This document shows, one piece after another, positions 21,132 to 63,173 of a stretch of DNA of 64,000 nt. Source of the stretch: a virus; the IMG/VR virus record IMGVR_UViG_3300036791_000462, positions 1 to 64,000 of that record. One strand, written 5' to 3'. Position 1 is the stretch's first letter. Each line of letters opens with the position of its first letter. The translations under genes were made by a program, and so were the position numbers. The notes beneath the pieces are model-generated. The model did no database searches. It saw only the letters and a list, made by a program, of their open reading frames with translations, and was not told where the DNA came from.

Positions 21132-21201
21132 CTCCTCGGTCGGAACATCAGTGGCGAGGGCCTTTCCCTCGCACCAACATCATAGCACAGGTCGTGCGCT
21201 A
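21132..21201 (-). promoter_or_regulatory. Palindrome/-10/hairpin/CGACCGAGGAG element, copy 1
   Basis: TAGCGCACG-A-CCTGTGCTA, -10 TATGAT, hairpin GCGAGGG..CCCTCGC. Confidence 0.8.
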
Positions 21202-24200
21202 GGCGTTGCCGCCGAACCAGTTGTCACACAGCACGGTGCCGTTGCCGAGGATGCCCGGCGAACCGCCCGTGTAGGTGGTGTCCGTGAACGTCTGGATCGT
21301 CGTTCCGTTGAGCGACACGGTGAGCGTCGAGCCGTGCGCCGTCAGCCTCAGCCTGTCGCCGGGGCTCGGCGACGAGGTGTAGCCGGTGCCCAGTTGGGTG
21401 TAGTTGGTGTTGTCGCCCCGGTAGAGGTTGATGCTCCCGGAGATCCAGATGACGACGTACATGCTGAGGAGCGGGTCGGTGGTGCTGTTGGAGGAGCCCT
21501 GCATGCGCACCGCTGGGCCGATGGCGTTCCCCGTGAACGTCAGGGGCGCGGCGATCTCCGAGAAGTGATCGCTGGCGTAGGACTCGCCGGTGCGCAGAAG
21601 GCCCGAGTCGTACCCGCCGAGGGTCTGCGAAAGCTGAAGCTGGTTGCTGACGATGGTGCCCTTGGGCTGCTGGGTGAGCCAGTTGGTCCAAGCAGAACCT
21701 GGGTCGCCGTCGGCACGGTTGAAGTTGTCGGAGTAGACGACCGAGGTGTTGAAGTTCTGGAAGATCGCGTTGGCGTCCGTCTCGGTCGAGTAGTGCCCAG
21801 ACCAGAGCCGCACGAACAGCGAGCCAGTCGGAAACGGGTCGGCGATGCTGAACGCGGTTGTCCAACCGCTCCCGTCCGTTGAGTAGTCCCAGTAGATCGT
21901 GCCGCCCGACTCGCGAATCCGGACCCAGCACGGGCTCGCGGGCAGCGTGATCGGCGTCTGCCCGTGCGTCACACCCGCTGTAGTCCAGTAGATCGGCTCT
22001 ATCTGACGGGTACCGCTCGTCGCAACGAACTGCCACGCTGCCCCGCCTTGAGAGGTGCTGCCTGATGCCACGTCCAGTTCCAGTCCGGTCTGGAACGAGT
22101 TGTTGATTCCGGCTGGCGGCGGCGTCACTTGCACGGCCGCGTTTGACCCGGTCAGCGCCCATGCGTGTCGGGAGACGACCGCCGAGTTGGTGGTGCCTGC
22201 GAGTAACGCCAGCCCACTGCTCGATTCGCTGACGGTCCCGGACGTTCCCCATTTGGTGGTGTCAACAGACGCGCTCGCGAATGCGTCTTGCAGGTTTGCC
22301 ATCGGACTCATGGTGACGGTGGCGGTCGCAGCCGACGCGGCCTGCGCCACCGGCGCGAGCGCGACAGTTCCGGGCACCGCGACCGTAGCTGTGGCGCTCG
22401 CCGCCGCCCGTGCGGTGGGCGTGAGCGGCACAGGTGTCACGGCGGAGGCGTTGCCGCCCTGCCAGTTGTCGCAGGCAGCGGCACCGTTACCAGCGATGCC
22501 TGGAAGGCCACTCGTAAAGCGGGAGTCCGTGGTCGTGATGATCGTGGTGCCGTTCAGCGCCACGGTGAGCGTCGAGCCCAGAACCGTCAGCCTGAGCCTG
22601 TCGCCAGGAGTCGGCGTTGAGGCCACGCCGGTACCAAGCTGGGTGCTGCCACCGGTCGAGTCGGTAACGGCAAACAAGCCGATGTTGCCGCCATACCAGA
22701 TGGCTACGTACATGCCGTTCATCGTGCTCACCATGCGAACCGCTGGACCGATGGCGTTGCCGGTGAAGGTCAAAGGAGCCGCGACCTCGGAGAAGTGATC
22801 CGCGCCGTACGTCTCGCCGCCTGCGTTGCGAAGCAGGCCCGAGTCGCTACCGCCAGCATTGGCGAGCACCAGTTGGTTACTGACGATTGACGCGCGAGCC
22901 TGGGCGCTCCAGGTTTGCCAGTTCGGACCCGGATCACCGTCAGCGCGGTTGAAGTTGTCGCTGTAGGTGATCGCGGGCACGGTGATCGTCGCCGTGGCGC
23001 TCGCCTTCGCTTGCGCAGCGGGCGTGAGCGCCACGATGCCGACCATGCTGCCAACGGCTGGCTCGACCCAGCCTGACTGCCACTCGTGGGTGATGTTCGC
23101 CATCGCGCCGAGGGTGTGGGGAACCCCGAGGGAGGTGAGCAGCGCGTCGTAGTTCGTCACGTCCGCCTGGAAGGCGTTGTAGCCCCCGATCCAGATTCGG
23201 TTGGAGCCGGTGAGCGGTCCGCTGAGCGCCGTGACGTTCGCGGTCGAAAGCTGGTAGTTGGCGGCGAAGTTGGCCTGGTTGCCGAAAATGTCCGCGCCGT
23301 AGTCGTTGTAGTTGACCATGCCCTGGGCGGGGAAGTCCCAGGAGGCTGCCTTGGCGAAGATGTTCGGGAAGCGCAGCAGCAGATCCTGCGCCCCCATGCC
23401 TGAGCGCGAGAAGCCGATCAACAGGTTCTTTTCGCCGCCTGATCCGAACGTGCTTTTGACCCACTGGGTCACGTCGCCGACGAGGTAGGTGACGCGCTGG
23501 TCGCCGGTGTCCGTGATGCTGTTCCCGTACCAGTTCGCACCCGACAGGTTCGCGGCGATGATCGTCAGGTTGTACTTGTTGGCGAGCGCGAGCGGGACGG
23601 CCACGTCGCCCATCGGATCGCCGTAGGTCGCGCTGGGGTAGGCCTCGGTGGTGAGCATGTACAGGAAGTTGTGCGCGAGCCCAGGGTTGGGGGCCGTTGG
23701 CTGGAGCACGCGAACGGCGAGCGGGTTGCCGTCGTTGACGATTGGGGTGGTGGCGTTGTAGGTCGCGACGCCGTTGCCGTCCGTGCTCGCGAACAGGAAC
23801 GAGGCGGGCGGTGCAACCAGCGCTCTCGCTGCCGAGGCTGCGCCTGCGGTCGGAGTCAGCGCCGCCGTGCTGATCTGGGCGGTGACGTTCCCCGCCGCAA
23901 AGTTGTCGGCGGTGCATGTCGGGTAAAGCTGATAGCCCGGCTGCCCGGCGGTGCATCGGCTGTCGTTGACCGAGATCAACTCGGTGTTGTTCGCGCGGAT
24001 CGACAGGCGTGTGCCGTACGCCACCCCCGTGTAGACGGTGTTCGTCGGGTTGGGCGCTCCCGCCCCGCTGTTCTGGCAGTTCACGCTTGCGAGCGCCACC
24101 GAGTTTTGTCCGGCCTGGATGAAGTAGATCCGGAAGACCCGGCCCGGCATGAAGTAGCAGTACATGTAGCCGGTGGTCCCGTTCCACCGCAGAATCACAC

Positions 24201-25260
24201 CGATGAACGCGGAGCCTCCCAGCGTCGGCGGGACCGACCCAACACCGATCTGCGCCCACTGGTCGGGGCCGTAGGCTTCGTTGCGCTGCGCGGTGCGGTG
24301 ACCGCTTGAGCCTGAGATGTTGAGTTCGTTGGCAACGATGGTCCCGTCGGTGCTGACAACGCCCGAGAAGCTGACGGTGACGGGCGTCCACATTGACTGG
24401 CCCGCCGAGGCGTTCCCGTTGGCGCGGTTGAAGTTGTCAGAGCCAATCGCCGGGCCGAGCGTCGCGCCCATCGTCGCGTTCCCGCACGCGAAGTTGTCGA
24501 GCGTCATCGTCCCGAACGTGGTGATGCCCGGCGAGCCACCGGCGGGGATGTGGTCGTCCACAACCGCCAGTTGTGGGACGCCGTTGATCGACCCGACGAG
24601 CACGTCGCCGATCACGTAGAACTGCAGGGCGGTGCCGACCGCGAGCGCCCCGGCCAGTTGCACACCGTCGATCAGGGTGTAGGCCCCGACGTTGGTGCGG
24701 TAGTAGAAGTTCAGGACCGGCTGGGAGCCGTTGAAGTAGTAGAGCAGCGCGTATTCGGCGTTGGTGGAGACGTTGTGGCGCAGCGTCAGCCCGACGAAGT
24801 CGTTGACGACGTTGTTGACGGACCCAACGGTGCCCTGCGCAAACTGGTCGCCGCTGTAGGTTTCGCCTGAGCGATAGGCCCCCGCAAGCGACGCGCCGAC
24901 GCCGGACGCTTCGTTGGTGGCGATCACCGCGTTGCCGTCGCCGGTCGCTGTCCACCCGTTCGAGCCGCCGAGCGGCCCGTTGGCACGCTGGAAGTTGTCG
25001 GCGAAAAGCTGGTTCAGCGTCAGTTGCGGAAGCAGCGTCGGGAAGCTGACCGTCGCTGTCGCGGCCGACACCGCGCTCGCGTGCGGGCTCAGGTGCGCAG
25101 CGCCGGGGATGATCACCGCCAGGGTTGCCTGCGTCACCGCCCGCGCGACGACCGTCAGCGCAACCGGGCCGGGCTGCGGAGGAAGCACGGGGGCGGGAGG
25201 TAGCGTTGCCACCGTCGGCTGGGGCGTAAAGAGGACGAACACCCCAGAGCGGTCGATCAT
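21199..25260 (-). CDS. Large virion-appendage protein with four [SA]DNFxRAxG beta-modules and an alpha/beta-hydrolase (esterase) domain
   Basis: ATGA-coupled start MIDRSG; repeated modules; GFSRSG nucleophile elbow and THEW near 23050-23790. Confidence 0.7.
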   Translation of the reverse strand: MIDRSGVFVLFTPQPTVATLPPAPVLPPQPGPVALTVVARAVTQATLAVIIPGAAHLSPHASAVSAATATVSFPTLLPQLTLNQLFADNFQRANGPLGGSNGWTATGDGNAVIATNEASGVGASLAGAYRSGETYSGDQFAQGTVGSVNNVVNDFVGLTLRHNVSTNAEYALLYYFNGSQPVLNFYYRTNVGAYTLIDGVQLAGALAVGTALQFYVIGDVLVGSINGVPQLAVVDDHIPAGGSPGITTFGTMTLDNFACGNATMGATLGPAIGSDNFNRANGNASAGQSMWTPVTVSFSGVVSTDGTIVANELNISGSSGHRTAQRNEAYGPDQWAQIGVGSVPPTLGGSAFIGVILRWNGTTGYMYCYFMPGRVFRIYFIQAGQNSVALASVNCQNSGAGAPNPTNTVYTGVAYGTRLSIRANNTELISVNDSRCTAGQPGYQLYPTCTADNFAAGNVTAQISTAALTPTAGAASAARALVAPPASFLFASTDGNGVATYNATTPIVNDGNPLAVRVLQPTAPNPGLAHNFLYMLTTEAYPSATYGDPMGDVAVPLALANKYNLTIIAANLSGANWYGNSITDTGDQRVTYLVGDVTQWVKSTFGSGGEKNLLIGFSRSGMGAQDLLLRFPNIFAKAASWDFPAQGMVNYNDYGADIFGNQANFAANYQLSTANVTALSGPLTGSNRIWIGGYNAFQADVTNYDALLTSLGVPHTLGAMANITHEWQSGWVEPAVGSMVGIVALTPAAQAKASATATITVPAITYSDNFNRADGDPGPNWQTWSAQARASIVSNQLVLANAGGSDSGLLRNAGGETYGADHFSEVAAPLTFTGNAIGPAVRMVSTMNGMYVAIWYGGNIGLFAVTDSTGGSTQLGTGVASTPTPGDRLRLTVLGSTLTVALNGTTIITTTDSRFTSGLPGIAGNGAAACDNWQGGNASAVTPVPLTPTARAAASATATVAVPGTVALAPVAQAASAATATVTMSPMANLQDAFASASVDTTKWGTSGTVSESSSGLALLAGTTNSAVVSRHAWALTGSNAAVQVTPPPAGINNSFQTGLELDVASGSTSQGGAAWQFVATSGTRQIEPIYWTTAGVTHGQTPITLPASPCWVRIRESGGTIYWDYSTDGSGWTTAFSIADPFPTGSLFVRLWSGHYSTETDANAIFQNFNTSVVYSDNFNRADGDPGSAWTNWLTQQPKGTIVSNQLQLSQTLGGYDSGLLRTGESYASDHFSEIAAPLTFTGNAIGPAVRMQGSSNSTTDPLLSMYVVIWISGSINLYRGDNTNYTQLGTGYTSSPSPGDRLRLTAHGSTLTVSLNGTTIQTFTDTTYTGGSPGILGNGTVLCDNWFGGNA

Positions 25261-25637
25261 GCTGCTCCAGGTAGCGAAAGGTTGCCGAGGATCTGGACTT
25301 CGAGGTAGCTGTCGCTCGGGACGCGGGCGTACACCTGATCGTTGATGTCGTAGAGCGCAAACTCCACGTCGTAGATCCCGGCGGTCGCGGTGTCGGCCGG
25401 GATCCAGTCGTACTCGCACCAGCCGACGTTCGTGCCGGTGATCGCGTCGCCCTGCTGAAGCACGTTCGCTTCGGCATCGGTGGTCGGTGTCGCCCCACCG
25501 CGCTGGCGCATCACAAAGTGAACGTGGTCGGCCTGGCTGAGGTCCACCGGGGTTTTGTCGGCCTGGCTGAGAAGCACCCGGTATGGCGGCGAGGTGGCTC
25601 CCTGCTTGATCGTGAACGGGCCGGTCAAGAACGCCAT
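25257..25637 (-). CDS. BppU-like Ig-fold virion protein
   Basis: FTIKQGATSP..PVDLS..YDWIPADTATAGIYDVEF..VPSDSYLEV. Confidence 0.7.
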   Translation of the reverse strand: MAFLTGPFTIKQGATSPPYRVLLSQADKTPVDLSQADHVHFVMRQRGGATPTTDAEANVLQQGDAITGTNVGWCEYDWIPADTATAGIYDVEFALYDINDQVYARVPSDSYLEVQILGNLSLPGAA

Positions 25638-25675
25638 ACCCGGCATGCTAAGAGCGACTCGGGACGCTCCCCCAC

Positions 25676-28600
25676 TTAGCTTTCGACGCCCGCGAGCATC
25701 CCCGTGTCGATGGTGGGTTGCGCGACGACCTCAAGATCTTCGACGCTGGCGCTGTACCGGCTCAGCAGCACCGTCGTGTACATCCTCAGGTCCACGACGG
25801 CGGCACTGGTGACGCTCGCGACCACTGACGCGCTGAGCGGCGGCTGCAGCGTCGTCAGGAGCGGCGCGACCAGGATCAGGGTCGCGCGAGTGGCTGCTGT
25901 CGCCGTCGCGAAGATCGAGGTTTGCCCTGCGACCGTCATCCTCGCCTGGGTCGCTGCCTGAGCGACGGGCACGAGCGCGACGACGGTGGGAACCTCGACC
26001 GTCGCGCTGGCTCTAGACGCCGCGCTGGCAGCGGGCGCGAGGAAGGCGGCTGTCAAAACACTCGCGGCAGCGGAGGTTTGCGCGCTGGCTGAGAGCACCA
26101 TCCGCACCCTCACGGCAACGGTCGCGGTCGCGGCAGCGGTGGCTCCCGCGCGTGCGAGCAGCGGCACCGCCCCGGCGGTCGCGAACATCACCGCCTGCGT
26201 CTGCGCAAGCGCGTCAGCGGTCAGTGCGACGGGCGCGGTTGTTAGGCTGACCGCCTGCGTCTGCGCCTGGGCGTGCGCCGCGAACTGCACTGGGGCAGTG
26301 AGTGCGGCCTGCGCCTGGGTGGCGGCAGCGGCCCTGGGGCTCAGGATGCTGCCGAGGATCACCGCCGCCAGCGCCTGGCTGCTTGCTGTAGCGCTGAGGT
26401 TCAGCAGGCTCGCGGCACGTGTCGCCGCCAGCGCCTGGCTGCTTGCCCCGGCGACCGGCGCGATGCTGACAACGTTCGCGACGCCCACGGCCATCGTCGC
26501 CTGGGTGGTTGCGGCGGCGCTTGGTGCAAGCTGGACGGCGGGGATGACCGTCGCGGTCGCTTGGGCTGCGGCGCTCGCTGCGGCGCTCAGCCGCATCGGG
26601 GCCTGAAGCTGAGCGGTGGCCTGCGTCACAGCACCGGCGGCGGCAGCGAGCTTCGTGGCGGCACTCAGGGGTGCTTGCGCCTGGGTGGCTGCCTGAGCGG
26701 TCACGATCAGCGCCGTCGCGGCAGTAAGCGGCGCGAGCGCCTGGGTGCTGGCGGCGGCGCTCAACGTCAGGAACGCGACGCCGGGCACCTGCATCCCGCT
26801 TGTCGCCTGCGACGCAGCCGTGGCAGTCAGAGAAAGCTGGACGGTAACGACAACGGTCGCGAGCGCCTGCGTGGAAGCTGCCGCCGTTGGCGCGATTGGC
26901 CGGGCGGGAATGACCGTCGCCTGCGCTTGTGATGTCGCCTGGGCGGTTGGGACGAGCAGCGTCGGGGCGTTGAGTACGCCAGTCGCAGCGGTTGCTGCCT
27001 GGGCGGTTAGGGCCAGCGCCTGCGCAGCTACCGGGATCGTGATCGTCGCGCTCGCCTGCGTCGCCGCCCCGGCCGTGGCGGTGACAGCCACGGGCGCGGC
27101 GTTGATGCTCTGGACGACCGCGTAGGGCACCACGACCGGCGCGGCATTGCCCGGATCGGTCTGGACGTAGAGCCCCACGATGTCGAGCCCCTTGACGTAG
27201 GGTGCCCACGCAAGTGGCGACCCTGCCGCCTCTGTCCACGCCACTGCGTCGGGCGAATACTCCATGTGTAGGTAGCCGTCGCCCGACTCCCTGACCCGCA
27301 GCCAGATGCTTCGGTCGGCGGCGAACGCGGACGACGGAATCCCGTTGCCCGACCCGCCGGGGCTGCTGAAGCTGGCGCACCACCAGTCGCCACCAGCCTT
27401 CGGACCGCCCGCCGCAGCACTCTGGTCGTAGAACTCGAAACCGACGCTGTTGGCGTCCCACGTCTGAATCTGGAAGTACGACCACGGCGGGTTATTCGAG
27501 TCGCCTGGTGTGAAGCGCAGGTACACCGCCGAGTTCGTGAGCCGGTACCAGTTCAGCGTCTGCATCCACTCGCCGCTGGTACCGCCCGAGTTCAACTGCA
27601 CCTGCCCGTTGCCTATCGGAGTCGCGCCATCGCCACTGAAGCTCCACTGGCTCAGGTCGTTGAAGGCATCCCTGAAGCCCGAGATCGGACCGAGGACCGG
27701 AAAGACGTGGCACGTCGCCTTCGTCTTTGCTGTCGCGCTCACCGTGAGCGGCTGTGCAACGACCGGGATCGTGACCGTCGCGACTGCCTGCGTGGCTGCT
27801 CCTGCCTGCACGATGATCGACGCCGCTCCGGTAACGACCGCGACTGTCAAAGCACTCGACGCGAGCGCGGTCGCTGTCAGCGGCTGCTGAGCGGCGACGA
27901 GCCCAGTCGCCTGGGTGCGCGCGGCAGTATTCGCGATCAGCAAGCTCGGCGCGGTGAGCGCGACCGTCGCCTGCGTCGCAGCGTTCGCGACAGCCGTCAG
28001 CGGAACGCCGCCGACGGACATGGTCGCCAGCGCGCTCGTCGCTGCGTACGCTGCTACGCCGCCGACGCCCGCCACGGTGCCCGCGCTGTAGTGGGCGAGC
28101 ACCTGCGTCGGCGTCAACACGTAGTTGTAGATCGCAGCCTCGTCCAGGACGCCGTCGAAGAACTGGGTGGTGCCGGTACCCCCCCAGCCGACCATCAGGT
28201 CGTGGCTCTGGTCGGAGACTGTGAGCGTCGTGTCACCAAGCGTCGTCACTGCTGCGCCATCGACGTACATCACGCATCCGTTCGCGACTCCGGACCGGAA
28301 CGTGAGCACCACATGGTGGGCGTTGCCATCGTTGAGATTCGGCCCGTTGGTGCCGTACCCGCCGCCGCCGCTGTTGAAGAACGCGAACCCGGTCCAGTCG
28401 AAAGCGTCGATGTAGCCGTTCGGATTGACGAAAATCCCGAATCCGTACTGCTTTACGATCACCGCCTGCAACTGGCCGCTCGGCGGCGGCGAGGCCAGCT
28501 TGAACCAGCCCTCGACAGATCCCGTGGTGAGTTGGAACGCGCTGGGATTGCCGCAATCGACGTAGCCGCTCGTGCCGTCGAACGTCGTTGCCTTGTCGGG

Positions 28601-31600
28601 GTCCGACGGGAGCAGGCCGGGCTGGCTCTGCGTGTACCCGCCGGTGTATGTACCGGGATCGCCGGAACCCGAGGAATCGACGGCGGTGGTAGTCGTGTCG
28701 TCCAGCCGCCAGTAGCCGGTCGGCGCGTCGGACAACACCGTGGCCCGGTAGTTGGCGGTCGGCGCTCCACCCAGCAGGACAGCGGCGGTAGTGAAGCCAT
28801 GGGCGCTCGTCGTCGCTTGCGCCGAGAGCGAAAGCGTGACCGCCCCGGTAACCACGACCGTCAGAGCGCTCGACGCGCGGGCGGTCGCTGTAAGCGGCTG
28901 CGGAGCAGTGACGAACGCGGTCGCCTGGGTGATCGCGACAGCGGTCGCGGTCAGCAGGCTCGAAGCGGTAAGCGTGACCGTCGCCTGCGTCACGGCGTTC
29001 GCTACGGCCGTCAGCGGAATGCCGCCGACGGACACGGTTGCGAGCGCCTGCGTAGCCGCTTGCGCGCTCGGAGCCAGCACGCTCGCGGTAGTCAGCGACA
29101 CGCTCGCGGCCGACGTGGCCCCGGCCGTCAGAGCGAGCTTCACCGCTGCGGTGACCGCAACGGTTGCGCTCGTGGTAGCCCCAGCGCTTGCGCTCAGCGC
29201 CGTAGCGGCGCGCAGGACAACAGTCGCCTGGGACGCCGTCGCAGCGGTTGGTGTGAGCAATGACGGCGCGCTCAGAACCGTCGTTGCTTGTGCTGTCGCC
29301 CCGGCGGTTGGAGCAAGCGCCTGGGCGGTGATCGTCGTGACCGTGGCAGTGGCCGCACTCGCGGCCTGAGCGGCGGTCGCCGCAACAACATTGCCGCCGG
29401 ACCAGTTGTCGCCCGTCGCGGTGTTGCTGAAGATGATGATTCCGGGAGCGCCGCCGCTCGGGAACTGGGTGTCGGTCGTCGTCAGCGCCAACGCACCGTT
29501 CTGGTACAGCGACAGCGTCGAGCCCACCACGCTCAGCATCAGCGTGGTGCCCGCTGGCAGCGGGGTCGCGCCGAGCACCGTCGTCGCTAGCGTCGAGCCT
29601 GTGCCTGACACCCGCTTGCCGATCCGCAGTTCGTAGCTGCCGCCGTTGTTGAAGTAGATGAACCGGTAGAGGTTCTGGCCGGTAGCGAGGTCGGCGCGCA
29701 CGCAGGTTCCGATCCAGTCGCTGAGCCCAGGCGGCGTTTCGACCTGGATCTGTGACCACTGGTCGTTGCCGTAAGTCTCGCCGCGAAGGATCTCGTGCCA
29801 GGTCGCGCTGGTCACGCCTTTGATCTGTTGGGAGACGATCACCGGCGCGGCGTCGAACCCGGTGACCCAGCCACCACCGACAGCGCCGTCGGCACGATTG
29901 AAGTCGTCGGAGGCGACTTGCACATTCCCCCCGGCCGCGCCACCGGGTTGCAACCAGACGGGCGCGGTGAGCGGAGCCAGCGCCTGTGTCGCAGCACTCG
30001 CTGTCGGCGTCAGTAGCTGAGCGGTCGGCGCAGTAACGGTGGCGGTCGCCTGGCTGGCTGCGCCAGCGGTCGGGGTCAGCCGCGTAGCGGCGAAGACCGT
30101 TGCGGTCGCTGCAGACGCAGTCCCGGCGCTCGCTGTGAGCTTCGCTGCGGCGGTTGTGGCAGCGAGCGCCTGGCTGGCCGCACCGGCCACTGGCGCGATT
30201 GGTATTGCGGTCGGCGCTGTGACGGTGGCGGTCGCCTGGCTCGCGGCCCTGGCGACCGGGGCCATGTACGGCTGACCCGTACCGATGCCGTAGTGGGTGG
30301 CAACCTGCGCCGCGCTCAGCACAACGCCGTAGACAGCAACCTCGTCAATCGAGCCCTGGAAGTTGCTGCCACTGCCGGGGTTGCGGTCGAAGATGCAGAG
30401 CGCGCCGTTGGTCGCGATTGAGTTCGCGGTCGCTGCCGCCGTCCCGACCTGTACGCCGTTGATGTAGCACTTCAGCACGGTCGCCGGGTCGTAGGTCATG
30501 ACGATGTGCTGCGTCACTCCAACCTGCGCGACAGGCGAGTTGACTGCGGTTGTGATTCGCGCCGCAGCGGAGTCGAAGACGTTGAACTCCCAGCGCCCAT
30601 CACCGGTCTGGTAGTGGCGGATGTACCACAACTGGTCGCTGCCACGAGAGATGACCTGCGGGCTGCCGCTGGCCGGTATCCCCGAGGGCTTGACCCACGC
30701 TTCGACGGTCAGCGCGGTGGTCACGTCCAGGCTGGCGCTCGTCGGGATGTTGATGTAGCTGGTGGTGCTGCCGAACGCGGGAGCGTTGCTCGCGGCGGCG
30801 TCTGCGCTGTTCGTAATCAAGCCGCCCGCGTTGTAGGCGATGCTCGACCCGACCGTGGTCGATGGGTTGGTGCCCTTTGAGTCCTGGAACTGGCCGGACG
30901 TTTCATCGAGCCGCCAGTAGGAGATCAGCCCCGCTTCGGACAGAATCAGGTCGCGGTAGGCGGTGGTCGGGATGATGACGTTCGCCGCCGCCTGGCTGGC
31001 CGCCCCGGCGGTAGCGTTCAAAGGCTGCGCTACCGGTGGAACGTTGAAGTTGTCAAAGGTGGCGTTGGTGTCAGTCTCAGCCGCGTAGTACCCCGCCCAA
31101 AGCTGCGGGAACATCGCACCGGTCGGGAACGGATCGGCGATGCTGAACTGGTTCGTCCAGTTGACCGCGTCCGTCGAGTAGTCCCAGTAGAGCGTCCCGG
31201 CCGACTCGCGGATCCGAACCCAGAGCGTGCTGGCTGGCAGCGTGATCGCGGTCTGCAGGTGCGACGTGCCTCCCGTGTCCCAGTAGACCGGCTGTATCTG
31301 CCGCGTGCCGCTGGTCGCGACGAACTCCCACGCCGCGCCGCCCTGGCTGTTCGAGCCCTGTGCAATGTCGATCTCGACACCGGTCTGAAACGAGTTGTTG
31401 GTACCAGCCGGTGGCGGCGTCACCTGCGCGAGCATGCTTGAGCCAGTCAGCACCCACGGTCGCTGGGCGATAACCCCCGAGTAGGCGGTCGTCGCGAGCA
31501 CCGCCAAGGTGCCGCCCGACTCGGTGACGGTGCCGTACGTCGTCCACTTGCCGGTGTCAACAGACGCGCCCGAGAACGTGTCGGTCAGCGTCGCCAGCGG

Positions 31601-31660
31601 TGCCGCCTGCCAGGTCGGCAGGACAGGGTGCGACGGGTATGTCCTGCCGGTGCGAGCCAT
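25676..31660 (-). CDS. Giant Ala/Thr-repeat fibre-like protein with two LamG/ConA-like domains
   Basis: 1994 aa; ~20-aa LxxxAxAxxQAxxxV repeats; YWRLDE/YWRLDD..TVEAWVK..IDEVAVY..L motifs. Confidence 0.8.
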   Translation of the reverse strand: MARTGRTYPSHPVLPTWQAAPLATLTDTFSGASVDTGKWTTYGTVTESGGTLAVLATTAYSGVIAQRPWVLTGSSMLAQVTPPPAGTNNSFQTGVEIDIAQGSNSQGGAAWEFVATSGTRQIQPVYWDTGGTSHLQTAITLPASTLWVRIRESAGTLYWDYSTDAVNWTNQFSIADPFPTGAMFPQLWAGYYAAETDTNATFDNFNVPPVAQPLNATAGAASQAAANVIIPTTAYRDLILSEAGLISYWRLDETSGQFQDSKGTNPSTTVGSSIAYNAGGLITNSADAAASNAPAFGSTTSYINIPTSASLDVTTALTVEAWVKPSGIPASGSPQVISRGSDQLWYIRHYQTGDGRWEFNVFDSAAARITTAVNSPVAQVGVTQHIVMTYDPATVLKCYINGVQVGTAAATANSIATNGALCIFDRNPGSGSNFQGSIDEVAVYGVVLSAAQVATHYGIGTGQPYMAPVARAASQATATVTAPTAIPIAPVAGAASQALAATTAAAKLTASAGTASAATATVFAATRLTPTAGAASQATATVTAPTAQLLTPTASAATQALAPLTAPVWLQPGGAAGGNVQVASDDFNRADGAVGGGWVTGFDAAPVIVSQQIKGVTSATWHEILRGETYGNDQWSQIQVETPPGLSDWIGTCVRADLATGQNLYRFIYFNNGGSYELRIGKRVSGTGSTLATTVLGATPLPAGTTLMLSVVGSTLSLYQNGALALTTTDTQFPSGGAPGIIIFSNTATGDNWSGGNVVAATAAQAASAATATVTTITAQALAPTAGATAQATTVLSAPSLLTPTAATASQATVVLRAATALSASAGATTSATVAVTAAVKLALTAGATSAASVSLTTASVLAPSAQAATQALATVSVGGIPLTAVANAVTQATVTLTASSLLTATAVAITQATAFVTAPQPLTATARASSALTVVVTGAVTLSLSAQATTSAHGFTTAAVLLGGAPTANYRATVLSDAPTGYWRLDDTTTTAVDSSGSGDPGTYTGGYTQSQPGLLPSDPDKATTFDGTSGYVDCGNPSAFQLTTGSVEGWFKLASPPPSGQLQAVIVKQYGFGIFVNPNGYIDAFDWTGFAFFNSGGGGYGTNGPNLNDGNAHHVVLTFRSGVANGCVMYVDGAAVTTLGDTTLTVSDQSHDLMVGWGGTGTTQFFDGVLDEAAIYNYVLTPTQVLAHYSAGTVAGVGGVAAYAATSALATMSVGGVPLTAVANAATQATVALTAPSLLIANTAARTQATGLVAAQQPLTATALASSALTVAVVTGAASIIVQAGAATQAVATVTIPVVAQPLTVSATAKTKATCHVFPVLGPISGFRDAFNDLSQWSFSGDGATPIGNGQVQLNSGGTSGEWMQTLNWYRLTNSAVYLRFTPGDSNNPPWSYFQIQTWDANSVGFEFYDQSAAAGGPKAGGDWWCASFSSPGGSGNGIPSSAFAADRSIWLRVRESGDGYLHMEYSPDAVAWTEAAGSPLAWAPYVKGLDIVGLYVQTDPGNAAPVVVPYAVVQSINAAPVAVTATAGAATQASATITIPVAAQALALTAQAATAATGVLNAPTLLVPTAQATSQAQATVIPARPIAPTAAASTQALATVVVTVQLSLTATAASQATSGMQVPGVAFLTLSAAASTQALAPLTAATALIVTAQAATQAQAPLSAATKLAAAAGAVTQATAQLQAPMRLSAAASAAAQATATVIPAVQLAPSAAATTQATMAVGVANVVSIAPVAGASSQALAATRAASLLNLSATASSQALAAVILGSILSPRAAAATQAQAALTAPVQFAAHAQAQTQAVSLTTAPVALTADALAQTQAVMFATAGAVPLLARAGATAAATATVAVRVRMVLSASAQTSAAASVLTAAFLAPAASAASRASATVEVPTVVALVPVAQAATQARMTVAGQTSIFATATAATRATLILVAPLLTTLQPPLSASVVASVTSAAVVDLRMYTTVLLSRYSASVEDLEVVAQPTIDTGMLAGVES

Positions 31661-33649: not shown

Positions 33650-34093
33650 TCAGTTCCGGCCTTCGGTGTCCCCGGCCTCCGTCTTGGCCCAGGTGCCGTC
33701 GTCGCGCTGCTCGACCAGGCCCGCTTCCTCCAACTGATCGAGGTGCTTCTGGACGGCCCCCTCCTCGCTGTACTCGACGGCGCTGAACGGGTCCGAAGCC
33801 ATGTCCTCGGTGATCACCGCGACGGTGTTGCGCGGCCTGCCGAGATGCTCCTCGTCGGTCACGAACGCGAGCACGCGACGGGTGGTGCCGAGCGGATCGA
33901 AGTGGGGTTCGTAGCCAGGAACCTGACCTGGGGCAAGCTCCTCGCCCGTGTATTGCGGCGGGTTTGACCAACTGGTGATCTCCCCGGCCTCGTTGCGGTA
34001 CACGAGCGACCCTTCGGGGATCGGGATCTCCTCGCCGGTGTCCGGGTGGACGTAGACGCTGTCGTCCGGTTCGTCTGCCTTCGCCTTCGCCAT
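33650..34093 (-). CDS. Hypothetical protein with C-terminal winged-helix-like motif
   Basis: AVQKHLDQLEEAGLVEQRDDGTWAKTEAG; GAGGA RBS. Confidence 0.6.
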   Translation of the reverse strand: MAKAKADEPDDSVYVHPDTGEEIPIPEGSLVYRNEAGEITSWSNPPQYTGEELAPGQVPGYEPHFDPLGTTRRVLAFVTDEEHLGRPRNTVAVITEDMASDPFSAVEYSEEGAVQKHLDQLEEAGLVEQRDDGTWAKTEAGDTEGRN

Positions 34094-35068: not shown

Positions 35069-36894
35069 ATCCCCTCCTCTCCCTGCGTCGTGGTTTGCAG
35101 TTCCTTGAGCTTCGCCTGGTCGGCCTCCAGCCGGTTGATCAGCCTGGTCAGCCGGTCGATCTGCTCCTGGTAGTAGCGCTTCCAGTCGCCGCTGTCGGCG
35201 TGGCTCAGCGAGTCGTTGTAGTCGTTGTAGCTCGCGCGAGCCGCGTCGATCTGCTCGTCCAGCATCGTGGGGTCGAGCCGCCGCAGACGGTCCTGCTCGC
35301 GCTCAGCGGCGGTTTTCGTGACCTCGATCTCGGTGGCCTCAGCGTCAGCCTCGACCACCGTGATCGAGCGGAGGTTGGTCACCTGGGTGACCTTCCCGCC
35401 GCCGTTGTAGGAGTCCGTCTCGTGCTTCTTGATCGTCGCGCTGCAGGTGACCGTGGTGCCCTGGTCGATCCCGCCAGCACCCCACCAGATGATCCCGTTG
35501 CCGTCCCGGTCATAGCCCTTCGTCAGCCACCGGGTGCCGTACTGGCCCTCGAAGCTCTTGACGAACGTGACGGTGAAGGTCAGGCCCTTGATCCGGTCGC
35601 CAACGGAGCCGATCCACTCCGAGCCCGCCGTCCGCTTGGCCTCCAGTTGACGCTGCAACTCCCGCTGGTAGGCCCCGATGGCGGAGGCGACGAACCCGTC
35701 GCCCTTCTCGCCCAGGTAGTCGGCGCGGCAGTAAGTGGTCAGGTTGTGCTCGAACTCTGAAAGCTCGTCACGCTCGCTCAGGTCATCGCGGACCCAGTCC
35801 AGGGCGGTGGTCGCGATCTCGCGATCCTCGTCGGTGGTCGCGACCCGCAGCTTCGCGTTGCGCTCCAGGTAGTTGTCCTTCGCCCGGTCGGCGGTCGCGC
35901 CGTAGTTCCGGGTGAAGTCCCCGTAGGAATCGTCCCGCGTCCACCGGGGCGTCCACCCGAACTCGCGAATCATCGCCGCGACGTTCGTCAGGAAGTCCCG
36001 TGTGGGGATCGCGATCCGGCCGCCGCCGATCCCGACATCGCCGAACCCGTCGTCGCCGGACTCGAACCCGAGGTCGGCGTACAGCGCCTCCAGCCACTCG
36101 GCCCACGCTGCGACACGCTCGGGATTGTGAGCGCCGGTGTAGTCGCCCAAGCAAGTTGACCCAATCTGCCTCAGTTCGCCGGTTGCGACCTCGAACAGGA
36201 TGTAGGTCTGCTTGCGGCGGCGGTTGAAACCGCAGTGGTCGCAGTCAGGCCCGGCGTGCCGGTAGCTGGTCAGGTCAGCGGCCTCAACGGCCGCAGCGGC
36301 CTCCTCACCGATCTTGTTCTTGAGGAACGTTCCGACGGGCGCGCGGCGGATGCCGACACTCTCGTCAGCGCCCTGGTCGGCGTCGTGATCCAAAGTTGCA
36401 AGAAAAACCCACCCCCCAATCTGCGGCGTCTCGCCGTTGACGGTGATGAAGGTGAAGTCGATGACCCGCTCGACGTAATCGCGGGTCGTGCCCTCGACCG
36501 CCAGCAGCGCCGCCGACACACTGTCGGTGGCGGGGCGCATCTCGCGGCGGACCTCCTGGTCCTTCTCGTCAGAGACGGTCAGCGTGATCTCGCCGGTCCC
36601 GAGCTTGACGGCCTTCTTGTTCAGCTTGGTGATCCGCTCGCGAAGCTCGGCCATCTTGGAGTCAACAACGCGGAAGACGCGCCCGCCGACCTCCTCGCGC
36701 AGCGCGGCGACCTCGGCGATCAGCCGGTCGGCCTTCGCCTGGGCGGCGATCACGGTGGGGTGCTCGTAAACGTTGACGCGCTCACGGGCGCGAGCGTCAA
36801 GGCTCCAGTAGATGTCCTCGTAAGCGACAGACACCTCGGTCCGCGCTTCACGCGCATCCTGCTGGCGCTCGTAAACAGTTCTCAGGTCAGTCAT
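35065..36894 (-). CDS. Conserved phage protein with Zn-binding motif and C-terminal OB-fold-like domain
   Basis: CDHCGFNRRR..QIGSTCL; SEWIGSVGDRI..YG..IIWW..ATIKKH. Confidence 0.65.
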   Translation of the reverse strand: MTDLRTVYERQQDAREARTEVSVAYEDIYWSLDARARERVNVYEHPTVIAAQAKADRLIAEVAALREEVGGRVFRVVDSKMAELRERITKLNKKAVKLGTGEITLTVSDEKDQEVRREMRPATDSVSAALLAVEGTTRDYVERVIDFTFITVNGETPQIGGWVFLATLDHDADQGADESVGIRRAPVGTFLKNKIGEEAAAAVEAADLTSYRHAGPDCDHCGFNRRRKQTYILFEVATGELRQIGSTCLGDYTGAHNPERVAAWAEWLEALYADLGFESGDDGFGDVGIGGGRIAIPTRDFLTNVAAMIREFGWTPRWTRDDSYGDFTRNYGATADRAKDNYLERNAKLRVATTDEDREIATTALDWVRDDLSERDELSEFEHNLTTYCRADYLGEKGDGFVASAIGAYQRELQRQLEAKRTAGSEWIGSVGDRIKGLTFTVTFVKSFEGQYGTRWLTKGYDRDGNGIIWWGAGGIDQGTTVTCSATIKKHETDSYNGGGKVTQVTNLRSITVVEADAEATEIEVTKTAAEREQDRLRRLDPTMLDEQIDAARASYNDYNDSLSHADSGDWKRYYQEQIDRLTRLINRLEADQAKLKELQTTTQGEEGM

Positions 36895-36898
36895 CAGT

Positions 36899-47643: not shown

Positions 47644-47649
47644 CCGGCT

Positions 47650-56059: not shown

Positions 56060-56230
56060 TCAGTCGGCCTGCTGCTCGGCCGATGTCTCTGAGGTCTTCG
56101 TGCGCTTGGCGTTAGCGCGACTGATCGCCACCTGCTCGCGCACACGCAGGTCGGGGTTGCCCTCGTTCGCGTCGGCGTAAGCGCCGGGACCGATCACCTC
56201 GTCGCAGACCTGCCGGGCGATGTCCCACAT
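56060..56230 (-). CDS. Small hypothetical protein
   Basis: MWDIARQV.. after CGACCGAGAGGAG. Confidence 0.55.
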   Translation of the reverse strand: MWDIARQVCDEVIGPGAYADANEGNPDLRVREQVAISRANAKRTKTSETSAEQQAD

Positions 56231-56235
56231 GTGAT

Positions 56236-56288
56236 CTCCTCTCGGTCGGGAACCGGTTTGGAGCATAACGCACGACGGGTGATAGAGT
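56236..56288. promoter_or_regulatory. Repeat element, copy 8, possibly bidirectional
   Basis: Palindrome at 56266-56284; minus-strand -10 TATGCT; plus-strand -10 TAGAGT. Confidence 0.7.
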
Positions 56289-57303: not shown

Positions 57304-57488
57304 TCGATCAGCAGTCGCTGGCCCATGCCCATCCCCAGGCCGCGTCCGAACCTTTCAAAGCACGGAACGCATTGATACGCCCACGGTCCCATCGTGGTCG
57401 CGGCATCGTACGCTGCCGGTCGTTCCTTGCAGATGTCGCAGGTCGGTCGTTCGCTGAGCACGTCGGTGGCGGTGTCGTCGTACAGCAC
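57300..57488 (-). CDS. Small Zn-finger phage protein
   Basis: CDIC..YDAATTMGPWAYQCVPC..GLGMGMGQ. Confidence 0.65.
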   Translation of the reverse strand: MLYDDTATDVLSERPTCDICKERPAAYDAATTMGPWAYQCVPCFERFGRGLGMGMGQRLLID

Positions 57489-57495
57489 GCGGCAT

Positions 57496-57543
57496 TCCTC
57501 TCGGTCGGTGTCCCACCACCAGCATAGCGCACGTCGTGCGTTA
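57496..57543 (-). promoter_or_regulatory. Repeat element, copy 9 (near-perfect palindrome)
   Basis: TAACGCACG-A-CGTGCGCTA, TATGCT, CGACCGAGAGGA. Confidence 0.8.
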
Positions 57544-57791: not shown

Positions 57792-58183
57792 GGCTCTCCT
57801 CGGTCGCGGGACATCCCGTCGCGAAATGTACGCGCAGCCGCAGACACCGCCCTTCCAAGACGCACGAACCAGGCTCCCAGGCGTTTGCAGGCTCCCTGAG
57901 CCCACCTCAGCGCCGTGGCGGCGATCCCAGCGACCCACACGGCCCCTGCAGCGACCAGCGCGCCGAGCGCCAGCACAGCCGCCCAGAGGCGCATCAGCAC
58001 CGTCGGCCGCTCCAGTTGGATCCTCGGCGGTCCTGTCTGCCACTCCGGTTTGAAGCCGCTGACCCACATCGTTTCGGACCGGTGGCAGCGTTCGCACACG
58101 CGCGTCCTTGTCGGCAGGTCCGAGCCGTTGCGCCAGTCGGAGAACTCGTGGCCGTACAGCGCGCAGCGAACCCTGCCGGTCAG
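57788..58183 (-). CDS. Hypothetical membrane protein (start uncertain)
   Basis: CALYGH..CERC plus one TM helix. Confidence 0.5.
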   Translation of the reverse strand: MTGRVRCALYGHEFSDWRNGSDLPTRTRVCERCHRSETMWVSGFKPEWQTGPPRIQLERPTVLMRLWAAVLALGALVAAGAVWVAGIAATALRWAQGACKRLGAWFVRLGRAVSAAARTFRDGMSRDRGEP

Positions 58184-62820: not shown

Positions 62821-63107
62821 ACGCTCAGGTCGATGGCGTTGCGGTGATACCCGGAGTCGGGGTCGGCTTCGTGCTCGGCTAGCAGCCGCATCACCCGGTC
62901 GGTCACGAGCGGCTGTAGATCCTCGGGGACGCTGTCGTAGAAGGCCTCCAGCGGGATGCCCTGAAAGAACCCGCCGTCGCGGATGATCTCCTCGTCGGAG
63001 GGTTGCTTGGCGAACTCTTGCCAGAACGCCCCGTTGCATGGGTGGTCGTATCCAACGACAACTCGTTCCTGGCCGGTTGGGTATCTGCTCAGGATGATTC
63101 GGCTCAC
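62817..63107 (-). CDS. Hypothetical protein
   Basis: MSRIIL..VVVGYDHPCNGAFWQ after CGACCGAGGAG. Confidence 0.6.
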   Translation of the reverse strand: MSRIILSRYPTGQERVVVGYDHPCNGAFWQEFAKQPSDEEIIRDGGFFQGIPLEAFYDSVPEDLQPLVTDRVMRLLAEHEADPDSGYHRNAIDLSV

Positions 63108-63114
63108 GGCATTG

Positions 63115-63173
63115 CTCCTCGGTCGGTGGGTAGAAAACCAACCCTAGCGTACGCACCTGACGTGTGTTAGGTT
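63115..63173. promoter_or_regulatory. Repeat element, copy 10, possibly bidirectional
   Basis: TAACACACG-TC-AGGTGCGTA (20 bp); minus-strand -10 TACGCT; plus-strand -10 TAGGTT. Confidence 0.65.

Follow-up and report, generated by a model that had tools for sequence, protein, structure and literature searches.

Nearly all transcription units of an uncultivated high-GC tailed phage, known from metagenomes alone, start with the same cassette, in which a 19-bp symmetric dyad is fused to a predicted promoter and followed by an optional RNA hairpin and then by a fixed ribosome-site box. About 22 copies are found in the 107-kb genome, 11 of them in the 64,000-nt stretch that we analyzed here (the window). 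Our preferred reading, to which we give a probability of roughly 60%, is a modular expression cassette in use across the phage lineage, which would combine an extended -10 promoter, the operator of a dimeric protein, a leader hairpin and the box.

Copies of the cassette and the genes they precede

A search of the window with TARCRCACGNCGTGYGYTA, allowing up to three mismatches, returned 10 matches, where 0.35 would be expected by chance and 100 shuffles gave 3 at most. All ten palindromes listed in a preliminary description of this DNA are present: nine are among these matches, and the remaining 20-bp copy (63150-63169) is real but degenerate. The tenth match (43007-43025) had not been listed; it is also degenerate, with its -10 box displaced by 2 nt. 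Every copy in the window lies at a gene boundary on the minus strand, which is the gene strand (Table 1). The element was also proposed to be phage-wide, which holds for the whole genome and for five related metagenomic phage genomes, where a stricter setting of up to two mismatches detects 5-22 dyads each and reversed-pattern controls give 0. Four relatives that were fetched whole have 20-28 strong sites each. The set of strong sites used below comprises 126 dyads from five genomes. About 90% of sites are at gene boundaries, and just 13 of the 126 strong sites fall wholly within CDS calls in genomes that are ~90% coding. At 37 of the 126, the stop codon of the upstream gene forms bases 1-3 of the dyad. 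Genes that diverge on the two strands share the dyad at 105557-105575.

The preliminary description assigned these cassettes to host takeover and stated that none heads a structural gene. This does not hold for the copy at 21183, the sole promoter of its class upstream of the gene run from 21126 to 1, which includes the major capsid protein (15975-17033), tail sheath (11349-12821) and tape measure protein (5521-9603). The element also precedes giant-protein genes and the gene of the candidate regulator described below, and a plus-strand dyad-promoter-hairpin at 68654, without the box, stands ahead of non-coding sequence and tRNA-Glu. Because the capsid/tail operon and this tRNA transcript are headed by it as well, the element is not specific to host-takeover genes; it is a general promoter module of the phage.

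Table 1. Cassette copies and stand-alone boxes in the window
Feature	Span	Strand	Dyad	-10 box	Leader	Box	Start codon and gene
Copy 1	21126-21201	-	21183-21201, 1 mismatch; first TAG is stop codon of upstream 1353-aa gene	TATGAT 21179-21184	hairpin within 21143-21178, MFE -17.7	CGACCGAGGAG 21132-21142	ATG 21126; heads small-gene run leading on into capsid/tail operon
Copy 2	36894-36954	-	36936-36954; TAG is upstream stop codon	TATGAT	short hairpin GCGG/CCGC	AGACCGAGGAG 36899-36909	ATG 36894; heads 609-aa gene (phrog_2319)
Copy 3	37682-37746	-	37728-37746, 3 mismatches	TAAGAT	hairpin GTGGGG/CCCCGC (-11.8)	37688-37698	ATG 37682 (51 aa)
Copy 4, degenerate, newly found	42964-43025	-	43007-43025, 3 mismatches	TATACT, shifted 2 nt	no hairpin	CGACCGAGAGG 42973-42983	ATG 42964 (159 aa)
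Copy 5, short-leader	43772-43824	-	43806-43824; TAA is upstream stop codon	TAAGCT	13 nt, no hairpin	43778-43788	ATG 43772 (249 aa)
Copy 6	45264-45324	-	45306-45324; TAA is upstream stop codon	TATGAT	hairpin GTGCGGT/GCCGCAC (-11.6)	45267-45277	ATG 45264 (59 aa)
Copy 7	46011-46079	-	46061-46079	TAGGAT	weak hairpin (-5.3)	46019-46029	TTG 46011 (141 aa)
Copy 8, short-leader	47643-47692	-	47674-47692, left arm degenerate	TACCCT	9 nt	47650-47660	ATG 47643 (146 aa)
Copy 9, short-leader	56230-56284	-	56266-56284, left arm degenerate	TATGCT		CGACCGAGAGG 56238-56248	ATG 56230 (56 aa)
Copy 10, short-leader	57488-57543	-	57525-57543, 0 mismatches	TATGCT		CGACCGAGAGG 57497-57507	GTG 57488 (62 aa, phrog_23287)
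Copy 11, degenerate	63107-63169	-	63150-63169, 20 bp	TACGCT		63115-63125	GTG 63107 (96 aa)
Boxes without dyad		-				17756-17766, 19928-19938, 44690-44700, 46821-46831, 57796-57806	

Predicted promoter, leader hairpin and box

As noted before, a minus-strand TAnnnT starts at the final TA of the palindrome in all ten copies listed originally (TATGAT in three, TATGCT in two, and TAAGAT, TAAGCT, TAGGAT, TACCCT and TACGCT in one each). Among the 126 strong sites of the five genomes, TAnnnT comes next in 118, TGn is present in 107 and TRTG in 101. From this sequence pattern, we predict that the palindrome's downstream arm serves as an extended -10 promoter (TRTGnTAnnnT) without a -35 element. Upstream of the dyad, information content does not exceed 0.17 bits per position, and a generic -35/-10 scan of 36000-48500 yielded a number of sites not above chance. 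At about 12 sites, an ATG located 6-9 nt past the -10 box opens an ORF of up to 1056 aa, a spacing that fits leaderless mRNAs and therefore supports the predicted extended -10. The arm and the next four bases would be used as a host sigma-70/SigA-type promoter for which a -35 is not needed, and transcription would begin 6-8 nt downstream of the -10 box. With regard to the use of host RNA polymerase, we found no Sigma70_r2 domain in the phage genome, and an r4-type match was sub-threshold only.

GC-rich hairpins stand at the beginning of long leaders, 47 of 56 of which fold with z < -1.5 (mean MFE -13). In the window they occur in 6 of the 11 copies and are missing from those with short leaders. 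The stems differ even between orthologous sites and the loops are 82% purine so that, opposite to the palindrome, structure is kept while sequence varies. The hairpin probably stabilizes the 5′ end of the mRNA. Farther downstream, the sequence CGACCGAGRRG lies 9-36 nt after the -10 box and is followed within 3-8 nt by a start codon, in agreement with the order reported earlier, with one copy reading AGACCGAGGAG. The window has 15 boxes (0.47 expected), and since five of these occur without a palindrome, the box is an independent module. Each genome carries 40-49 copies of the CGACCGAGGAG box compared with 2-5 in the control; about 40% of them go with a dyad, and most are separated from the start codon by 5-6 nt. 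The box consists of a Shine-Dalgarno sequence plus five conserved bases without an obvious rRNA partner, and is absent before leaderless genes and before the tRNA. It would act in translation initiation as a separate module.

The dyad and its candidate regulator

The suggestion that a dimeric regulator binds over the promoter fits the symmetric conservation of the arms at predicted positions -29 to -11. C4 and C6 of the left arm are conserved equally to G14 and G16 of the right arm, and the left arm is within three deviations of the consensus at 126 of the 179 sites with a right arm and -10 box, in comparison with 2.3% of random 9-mers. There are 785 Watson-Crick pairs between the arms (794 ± 6.7 in column shuffles) and 19 compensatory double changes (25.3 expected), and the center base is A at 81 sites, T at 43, C at 1 and G at 0. 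Because the arms are conserved without covarying around an A/T center, the palindrome behaves as the site of a dimeric DNA-binding protein rather than as an RNA stem. Between the arms, sense-strand G.U combinations exceed A.C combinations (182 versus 72), as would also be expected of an RNA stem, but this excess can mostly be put down to the constraints that the promoter places on the right arm. Most likely, the whole dyad would be the operator of one phage-encoded dimeric protein and, since this protein would bind every dyad, all 20-30 transcription units would form a single regulon.

Three winged helix-turn-helix candidates that had been proposed as regulators gained no support and were rejected: neither 42021-42488 nor 42485-42964 encodes a product with a Pfam or PHROG match, the product of 33650-34093 has a sub-threshold match to HTH_20 only, and none of the three is conserved in all relatives. 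By elimination, the best candidate is a MerR-like HTH_17 protein encoded outside the window at genome positions 98039-98368. HTH_17 is the only helix-turn-helix family searched that reaches the cut-off anywhere in the genome, and the protein is the only conserved one with this motif, being kept in four out of four relatives with an invariant recognition helix. Its predicted fold is a MerR-superfamily winged helix-turn-helix with RacA, NmlR, BldC and GlnR/TnrA as best PDB matches. The gene is located directly behind a variant-dyad promoter, and mostly leaderless, in each ortholog checked (eight lineage loci plus the phage itself). Against the candidate, HTH_17 proteins often bind direct repeats, as BldC and D29 Gp36 do, or serve as DNA-binding domains of small terminases or excisionases, and the gene of the large terminase subunit is found four genes downstream of this one. 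In addition, DNA-binding folds invisible to Pfam and PHROGs may be present among the many uncharacterized phage proteins. There is a precedent in Gp36 of the lytic actinobacteriophage D29, a small MerR-like repressor of phage genes (PMC12266134).

The effect of the regulator would most likely be repression (global shut-off or tuning), since the operator overlaps TGn and the first bases of the -10 box. The direction is uncertain because a global repressor covering the promoter of the structural operon would be awkward in a phage in which no integrase was detected, and activation from within the spacer in a MerR/TnrA-type manner is a less likely alternative. A separate and rather unlikely explanation makes the dyad an activator or promoter-specificity site, where an early phage protein at -29 to -11 would replace the missing -35 contact, either by sigma appropriation as with T4 MotA/AsiA or by MerR/TnrA-type co-binding with RNA polymerase. 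In that case, promoters with the cassette would be middle or late and factor-dependent instead of repressible. Although the lack of a -35 at every copy is consistent with this, extended -10 promoters normally work without an activator, and MerR-type activation realigns -35 and -10 elements across a 19-20-bp spacer. The same module ahead of the structural operon is hard to square with simple shut-off, and the predicted MerR-superfamily fold of the candidate and the deviant dyad at its own promoter would also suit an activator; however, TGn and the first -10 bases, which sigma itself has to read, are covered by the right arm of the dyad, and MotA boxes are asymmetric and centered at -30. A more distant relative has a second promoter class with a true TTGAC(A/G) -35 and a partial dyad only, and its HTH_17 gene is found downstream of this class, which would fit an early factor-independent class making the factor for the full-dyad class.

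Slightly less likely again is that the palindrome, folded as an RNA or DNA stem-loop, would end or attenuate transcription arriving from upstream, as in the promoter-early stem-loop (PeSL) cassettes of T4-type phages, with the ~60-bp cassettes being mainly homologous linkers that shuffle gene cassettes between phages. The layout is as published (upstream stop codon, promoter with stem-loop over the -10, Shine-Dalgarno, start codon), as are the tens of copies mostly ahead of small genes of unassigned function (PMC2839356, PMC4122927). The upstream stop codons that open 37 of the 126 dyads and the sense-strand G.U excess point the same way, but the arms lack covariation, compensatory changes are in deficit and the center and inner positions are conserved in sequence. 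In addition, the palindrome is weak as RNA (mean MFE -6.3), at least five T in the next 8 nt are found at only 3 of 126 sites, a terminator scan flags no dyads, and copies occur in divergent intergenic regions where upstream transcription is nil. One conserved and one non-conserved neighbor flank 56% of element junctions versus 41%, yet alignment breakpoints between relatives are no commoner at elements than at random gene junctions (p 0.29-0.91), and the copies are not homogenized by recombination because leader hairpins 10 nt from the dyad vary.

An operator of a host transcription factor, tying all phage promoters to a host physiological signal, would account for a dyad consensus unchanged across phage genomes with proteins only 40-80% identical, but is improbable given that a search for the exact consensus across 596 Gb of representative bacterial and archaeal genomes gave only six isolated matches in unrelated MAGs, none clustered and none with promoter or box context, that the phages themselves encode a conserved helix-turn-helix protein whose recognition helix is invariant, and that the dyad fits no operator consensus known to us. 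We take CIRCE to have only TAGCAC in common with it, at other spacing, and the PafBC RecA-NDp motif presumably does not match.

Comparison with known phage elements

The cassette is a clear variation on the repeated regulatory cassettes of other phages. The SAS/ESAS elements originally offered as its analogue are apt for the CGACCGAGGAG box, but the closer published analogue is the PeSL cassette of T4-type myoviruses (Arbiol et al. 2010, PMC2839356; Comeau et al. 2014, PMC4122927). Both combine a host-type promoter, an inverted repeat, often over the -10, and a Shine-Dalgarno sequence, and both are found in tens of copies per genome of a large lytic myovirus, for the most part ahead of small genes of unassigned function, with a few in core modules. 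A -35 and an AT-rich region upstream are part of PeSL promoters, whereas the phage here has the extended -10 only, and the PeSL stems are terminators of variable position and sequence, in contrast to a dyad that is fixed in both, non-covarying and without a T-tract. The phage further differs in its second, truly structural hairpin in the leader, in showing no breakpoint enrichment, and in having no sequence or phylogenetic relationship to these elements.

SAS/ESAS of cluster K mycobacteriophages (Pope et al. 2011, PMC3203893), with similar motifs in Microbacterium cluster EF phages (PMC7302621), share a conserved asymmetric box over the ribosome-binding site with some bases unable to pair with 16S rRNA. 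They too occur in a single orientation and many copies, about half with an upstream inverted-repeat feature, and are kept across diverged relatives ahead of unrelated genes. The box sequences (CGACCGAGGAG versus GGGATAGGAGCCC) and copy numbers (40-49 versus 11-19) differ. In ESAS, two 17-bp repeats separated by 4-13 bp lie immediately ahead of SAS, while the phage here has a contiguous 19-bp dyad fused to the -10 and a variable-sequence hairpin between dyad and box, and its element is not limited to non-structural genes. Cluster O mycobacteriophages have 17-bp dyad repeats (PMC4351075) and Microbacterium cluster EG phages 18-bp inverted repeats (PMC7302621), which like the dyad here are short and symmetric, number in the tens (8-10 in cluster EG), lie mostly between genes and close to gene starts, are conserved cluster-wide and are presumed to bind a protein. 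About one third of cluster O copies are within genes, and the repeats are apart from predicted SigA promoters (PMC4351075), whereas our dyad is physically fused to a promoter, with the box after it, and is unrelated to these repeats in sequence. The operators and stoperators of cluster A mycobacteriophages (L5 gp71; PMC9283540) offer one phage DNA-binding protein with more than 20 genome-wide sites, in short intergenic regions and oriented with transcription, for genome-wide control. These are 13-bp asymmetric, monomer-bound sites of temperate phages, most of which block elongation rather than sit on promoters (PMC9283540), unlike the symmetric promoter-embedded site of a phage in which an integrase was not found.

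For the candidate regulator, D29 Gp36, GlnR/TnrA, RacA and BldC share its predicted minimal MerR-superfamily winged helix-turn-helix. Classical MerR operators lie between -35 and -10 elements at 19-20 bp, in contrast to the promoters here, which have no -35. Gp36 and BldC bind direct repeats, whereas the putative target of the candidate is a dyad; GlnR/TnrA and RacA bind dyads as dimers.

Copies of the cassette and their gene context

The preliminary description listed ten copies of an imperfect palindrome in the window, and all ten are present. A degenerate form of this 19-bp dyad (9+1+9) matches 10 times, compared with 0.35 expected by chance; nine of these matches are listed copies, the tenth is an extra degenerate copy at 43007, and the listed 20-bp copy at 63150 is present in degenerate form. 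Each of the ten listed palindromes does end in a TA that opens a minus-strand TAnnnT hexamer, and the order claimed for the rest of the cassette holds as well: the start-associated box CGACCGAGRRG stands 9-36 nt past the -10 (AGACCGAGGAG in one copy), with a start codon 3-8 nt further on. The element had been called phage-wide, and the whole record of 107,110 bp (66% GC, CheckV completeness 86%, nearly all genes on the minus strand) holds about 22 good copies, with matches also in related genomes; the window is the opening 64 kb of this record.

A nucleotide search of the 50,697 phage records in INPHARED returned no match to this phage, and no close isolated phage was found; its tail-sheath protein matches only Bacillus and Clostridium phage proteins of 20-24% identity. 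In IMG/VR, 31 loci encode a capsid protein with 78-100% identity; contigs of 110-125 kb are among them, and two of these have terminal repeats. Four of these related genomes (G001-G004) were fetched whole, and a more distant one (G006, 134 kb) was added later. The five relatives have 5-22 dyads each at up to two mismatches, while a reversed-pattern control gave zero; a longer exact pattern was too strict and matched nothing in IMG/VR. Using a position weight matrix built from the sites, we identified 126 strong sites in five genomes, with 20-28 in each of the four relatives fetched whole. Just 13 of the 126 lie wholly within coding-sequence calls in genomes that are about 90% coding, and at 37 the upstream gene ends on the TAG or TAA with which the dyad opens. 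The observation is confirmed and reaches well beyond the window. As for its interpretation, a phage-wide element with a probable dimer-type site on the promoter is supported, while takeover specificity and the proposed winged-helix regulators are not.

By its PHROG matches the phage is a myovirus (see table). Within the window, the genes first in line behind the copies are small ones with no known function and one gene of 609 aa. For the run that contains the capsid, sheath and tape measure genes, the copy at 21183 is the sole upstream promoter of its class, contrary to the earlier statement that none heads a structural gene, and relatives keep the site upstream of the same operon. The element is therefore a general promoter module and not a marker of takeover genes.

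Two copies outside the window extend this range. One, on the plus strand, consists of dyad, promoter and hairpin ahead of about 370 nt of non-coding sequence and tRNA-Glu(CTC). The Rfam search of this region recognized only the tRNA and no known leader family, and the non-coding stretch may therefore be the long leader of the tRNA or a structured RNA not yet known. The other is a single dyad between divergent genes in which each arm gives TGnTAnnnT for one direction and each side has its own box, which makes it a bidirectional promoter-operator.

Several other features of the genome were recorded. Two giant genes lie between the gene run of the 36936 cassette and the capsid operon; both proteins are poorly conserved, with 9-14% of their length matching in relatives, and the 1353-aa protein has no PHROG match. 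The gene for a protein with a Zeta-toxin/AAA_33 kinase domain is kept in all four relatives; a 243-aa gene follows and overlaps it. The tRNA-Pro called by ARAGORN has no support from Rfam and is therefore probably a false positive.

Features of the phage genome discussed in the text
Feature	Position	Strand	Remarks
Tail protein	2490-4148		PHROG match
Tape measure protein	5521-9603		PHROG match
Weaker ACGTGAGCTA motif	10754-10765		past the sheath gene
Tail sheath gene	11349-12821		PHROG match
Major capsid protein	15975-17033		PHROG match
tRNA-Pro call (ARAGORN)	17366-17465	-	100 nt; within well-supported coding gene 17135-17521
Two giant genes	21199-31660	-	1353 and 1994 aa
AT-rich perfect inverted repeat	46084-46107	-	10-bp arms AAACTATTCA / TGAATAGTTT, 4-nt spacer
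Zeta-toxin/AAA_33 kinase-domain protein	48746-51604	-	952 aa; Pfam 1.7e-22
Dyad-promoter-hairpin of tRNA-Glu(CTC)	68654-68672	+	region 68654-69122; outside window
Large terminase subunit gene	94336-96087		outside window
HTH_17 paralog 1	98039-98368	-	109 aa; orthologs in all relatives
HTH_17 paralog 2	104278-104517	+	79 aa; this genome only; convergent with 335-aa gene of unknown function
Dyad between divergent genes	105557-105575		genes from 105521 leftwards and 105602 rightwards

Separable modules of predicted promoter, leader and ribosome site

Among the 126 strong sites, the dyad is followed by TAnnnT in 118, TGn is present in 107, and TRTG stands directly upstream of the hexamer in 101, so that the downstream arm together with the next four bases forms a predicted extended -10 promoter. 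Information content upstream of the dyad does not exceed 0.17 bits per position; both a -35 element and an AT-rich tract are absent, and a generic -35/-10 scan of 12.5 kb found no more sites than chance. These properties are those of the extended -10 (TGn) class read by the sigma-70/SigA holoenzyme, in which TGn accompanies TAnnnT/TATAAT, a -35 is not needed, and transcription starts 6-8 nt downstream. The distance from dyad to start codon is bimodal. One group of sites has its start codon 27-60 nt away behind a leader that carries the box; the second, about 12 sites, has an ATG 6-9 nt past the -10 that opens ORFs of up to 1056 aa. The latter is the arrangement of a leaderless mRNA and gives independent support to a transcription start 6-8 nt past the hexamer.

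No Sigma70_r2 domain was found in the genome, and a search for r4-type domains gave only a sub-threshold match; a search for phage-type RNA polymerase was uninformative, its own control giving no signal. On present evidence, the dyad promoters are likely read by the host holoenzyme. The 66% GC content, the TAnnnT promoters and the leaderless genes only suggest an actinobacterium-like host, and a search of the Atlas with the SSB protein returned no usable taxon.

Two further elements were noted around these promoters. Just upstream of the 46061 dyad is an AT-rich perfect inverted repeat, unusual for a genome of 66% GC, which could be a terminator or a second operator. Past the sheath gene, a weaker ACGTGAGCTA motif recurs in relatives (at 29424 in G003) and precedes the strong AAGGAGGTG ribosome site of the next tail gene; the motif is similar to the dyad's right arm and has no proper -10.

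The dyad itself has the properties of a DNA site. Right arm and -10 occur together at 179 sites, and the left arm deviates from consensus at no more than three positions in 126 of them, compared with 2.3% of random 9-mers. Conservation of the left arm is almost that of the right (1.8 bits at C4 and C6, versus 1.9 at G14 and 1.7 at G16), and 124 of 125 distinct sites have A or T at the centre despite the 66% GC of the genome. These features would fit a site for a symmetric dimer, extending from about -29 to -11 and overlapping TGn and the first bases of the -10. The absence of covariation, the weak fold energy and the T-tail counts speak against a stem acting in the RNA. Watson-Crick combinations between the arms number 785, against 794 +/- 6.7 in column shuffles, and there are 19 compensatory double changes where 25.3 would be expected; at positions 9/11, CA is found 19 times and TG 48 times as single deviations, and an A-T pair that would compensate is found at no site. 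The RNA form of the palindrome has a weak fold (mean MFE -6.3 kcal/mol), a T-rich tail follows the dyad at 3 of the 126 sites, and a terminator scan flagged no dyad. Derivation from a host regulon or a prophage was also rejected: when 596 Gb of sequence from representative prokaryotes was scanned for the exact consensus, it yielded six isolated matches free of context. To our knowledge, the PafBC/RecA-NDp and CIRCE motifs differ from the dyad in sequence or spacing.

Downstream of the dyad, the leader hairpin shows the reverse pattern: its structure is conserved and its sequence is not. Among the long-leader copies, 47 of 56 fold with z < -1.5 (mean MFE -13), and the stem starts 5-7 nt past the hexamer, at the inferred 5' end of the transcript. 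Stems differ widely even at the orthologous capsid-operon site (GCGAGGG/CCCTCGC, GCGGGC/GCCCGC, GGAGGG/CCCTCC). Folding was done per sequence; RNAalifold on six orthologous leaders was uninformative due to misalignment of the length-variable hairpins by MAFFT. The loops are 82% purine compared with 55% for leaders overall, and no T-tract follows the hairpin. By analogy with known 5'-end-dependent RNA decay, the most economical reading is that the hairpin would serve as a stabilizing stem-loop at the 5' terminus.

The box CGACCGAGGAG is more numerous than the dyad, which accompanies about 40% of its copies. At up to one mismatch there are 40-49 boxes per genome, compared with 2-5 for a reversed control, and in the window the box alone has 15 copies against 0.47 expected; most are on the gene strand, with a spacer to the start codon of usually 5-6 nt. 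The box is absent ahead of leaderless genes and from the tRNA-Glu(CTC) copy, and it therefore belongs to translation, while the dyad and promoter belong to transcription. The distant relative G006 keeps the dyad but has another box, AGAGAGGTAG. We know of no pairing partner for CGACC in the standard anti-Shine-Dalgarno tail.

The modules thus occur together and apart: dyad and -10 alone at leaderless genes, dyad, -10 and hairpin at the tRNA, and the box alone inside operons, with the hairpin present only in long leaders. This pattern allows a role to be assigned to each from sequence alone: transcription for the dyad, the 5' end of the mRNA for the hairpin and translation for the box.

Candidate regulator and direction of control

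Three winged-helix proteins (42021-42488, 42485-42964 and 33650-34093) had been put forward as regulators. They have no credible DNA-binding match or family support, and two to three of the four relatives lack them. When the complete genome was searched in six frames, no XRE-type, WhiB or sigma domain was found, and the only helix-turn-helix domains detected are those of two HTH_17 paralogs. Only for paralog 1 does every relative have an ortholog; identity is 71-78%, and the recognition helix is invariant. PHROGs group it with excisionase/MerR-like regulators, and the core of its AlphaFold model (pLDDT about 84) is closest to DNA-bound winged helix-turn-helix domains of the MerR superfamily, with Foldseek matches to RacA, NmlR, BldC, MtaN and GlnR/TnrA at weak E-values of 7e-3 and above. 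We found the ortholog in 19 related IMG/VR loci and scanned nine for promoter context. In eight of the nine, as in the genome studied here, the gene lies directly behind a deviant-dyad promoter, often GCGCCCATCTTGCGC, with a mostly leaderless transcript; in the ninth, G006, it lies within an operon behind -35-bearing promoters. Only by elimination is this protein the best candidate regulator of the dyad. Its gene is four genes upstream of that for the large terminase subunit, and the protein could serve packaging instead.

We consider repression the probable direction of control (about 60%), because the dyad overlaps TGn and the -10. Activation has a clearly smaller share of our expectation, which it keeps because there is no -35, the same module drives late genes, and G006 has a second promoter class upstream of its HTH_17 gene. 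The promoters of G006 fall into two classes, one with a full dyad and no -35, the other, TTGAC(A/G)-N1-AGCACACG..GTTAGCTAtAnT, with a true -35 and a partial dyad; the HTH_17 gene is downstream of the latter, and the two may reflect temporal classes. A repressor of lysogeny is unlikely since searches for tyrosine and serine integrases found neither in G001-G004, two of which are complete genomes, and no tyrosine integrase in the genome studied here.

A more far-reaching scheme, which we regard as improbable, would have strictly lytic myoviruses of 107-134 kb run almost their whole programme (early genes, structural operon and tRNA) from one -35-less promoter type. A minimal MerR-like dimer bound in the spacer with RNA polymerase would then be the master on-switch rather than a steric repressor, and the lineage-specific box would be read by a phage translation factor or an RNase. 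If this were true, it would be the first system to give the SAS-type and dyad-type repeats of actinobacteriophage-like genomes each a function.

Comparison with known phage cassettes and operators

Repeated regulatory cassettes are already known in phages, and the variant described here is new. SAS/ESAS elements, PeSLs and the dyads of clusters O and EG are on record from many phages, for the most part with no function assigned. The present cassette is unusually easy to dissect because its modules are also found separately. Each genome supplies 20-30 natural variants of the promoter, and for this uncultivated group of high-GC phages there is one clear candidate for the regulator. Such an organization suggests that temperate phages are not the only ones to place a whole genome under one type of operator.

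The closest published architecture is the PeSL of T4-type phages, in which an upstream stop codon, a promoter with a stem-loop often overlapping the -10, a Shine-Dalgarno sequence and a start codon recur in about 50 copies per genome (PMC2839356, PMC4122927). The multi-copy layout is shared, with about 22 copies here, a stop codon within the dyad at 37 of 126 sites, and box and start codon after it. In contrast, the PeSL promoter is a sigma-70-like early promoter with -35, -10 and AT-rich upstream sequence, whereas the one here has a -10 with TGn and lacks the -35 and AT-rich tract. The PeSL stem-loop terminates or attenuates upstream transcription; the dyad, fixed in sequence and non-covarying unlike the PeSL, folds weakly as RNA (mean MFE -6.3) and has a T-rich tail at 3/126 sites. 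PeSLs are also described as recombination linkers that give rise to mini-circles, with indels and replacements between relatives ending at them. Such shuffling was rejected here: across seven genome pairs the elements showed no breakpoint excess over randomly drawn gene junctions (p 0.29-0.91), a weak test because the genomes are at least 16% diverged; junction synteny gave only a weak hint of it.

The box has a counterpart in the SAS of phages of clusters K and EF, to which no function has been assigned (PMC3203893, PMC7302621, PMC12699233). Like the SAS of cluster K, it appears to be an asymmetric box that overlies, in one orientation, the ribosome-binding sites of some of the genes, extending past the rRNA complementarity, but it differs in sequence from the SAS consensus GGGATAGGAGCCC, and the phage is not a member of cluster K. 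ESAS are paired imperfect 17-bp inverted repeats, 4-13 bp apart, that directly precede about half of the SAS; here, a contiguous 9+1+9 dyad is fused to the -10, 13-40 nt upstream of the box, at about 40% of boxes.

As a putative operator, the dyad has counterparts in the cluster O and EG repeats (PMC4351075) and, by the logic of its regulon, in the stoperators of cluster A (PMC9283540). The latter are asymmetric 13-bp sites bound by a monomeric immunity repressor in temperate phages, in contrast to the symmetric site and absence of a detected integrase here. In MerR-type operators, a MerR-family dimer binds a dyad in an over-long spacer of 19-20 bp between -35 and -10. The present promoters lack the -35, and the candidate protein has no long coiled coil or effector domain, yet the dyad covers the spacer region (-29 to -11) and the candidate has a predicted winged helix-turn-helix of the MerR superfamily. 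A small MerR-like repressor in a lytic phage has a precedent in Gp36 of phage D29 (PMC12266134).
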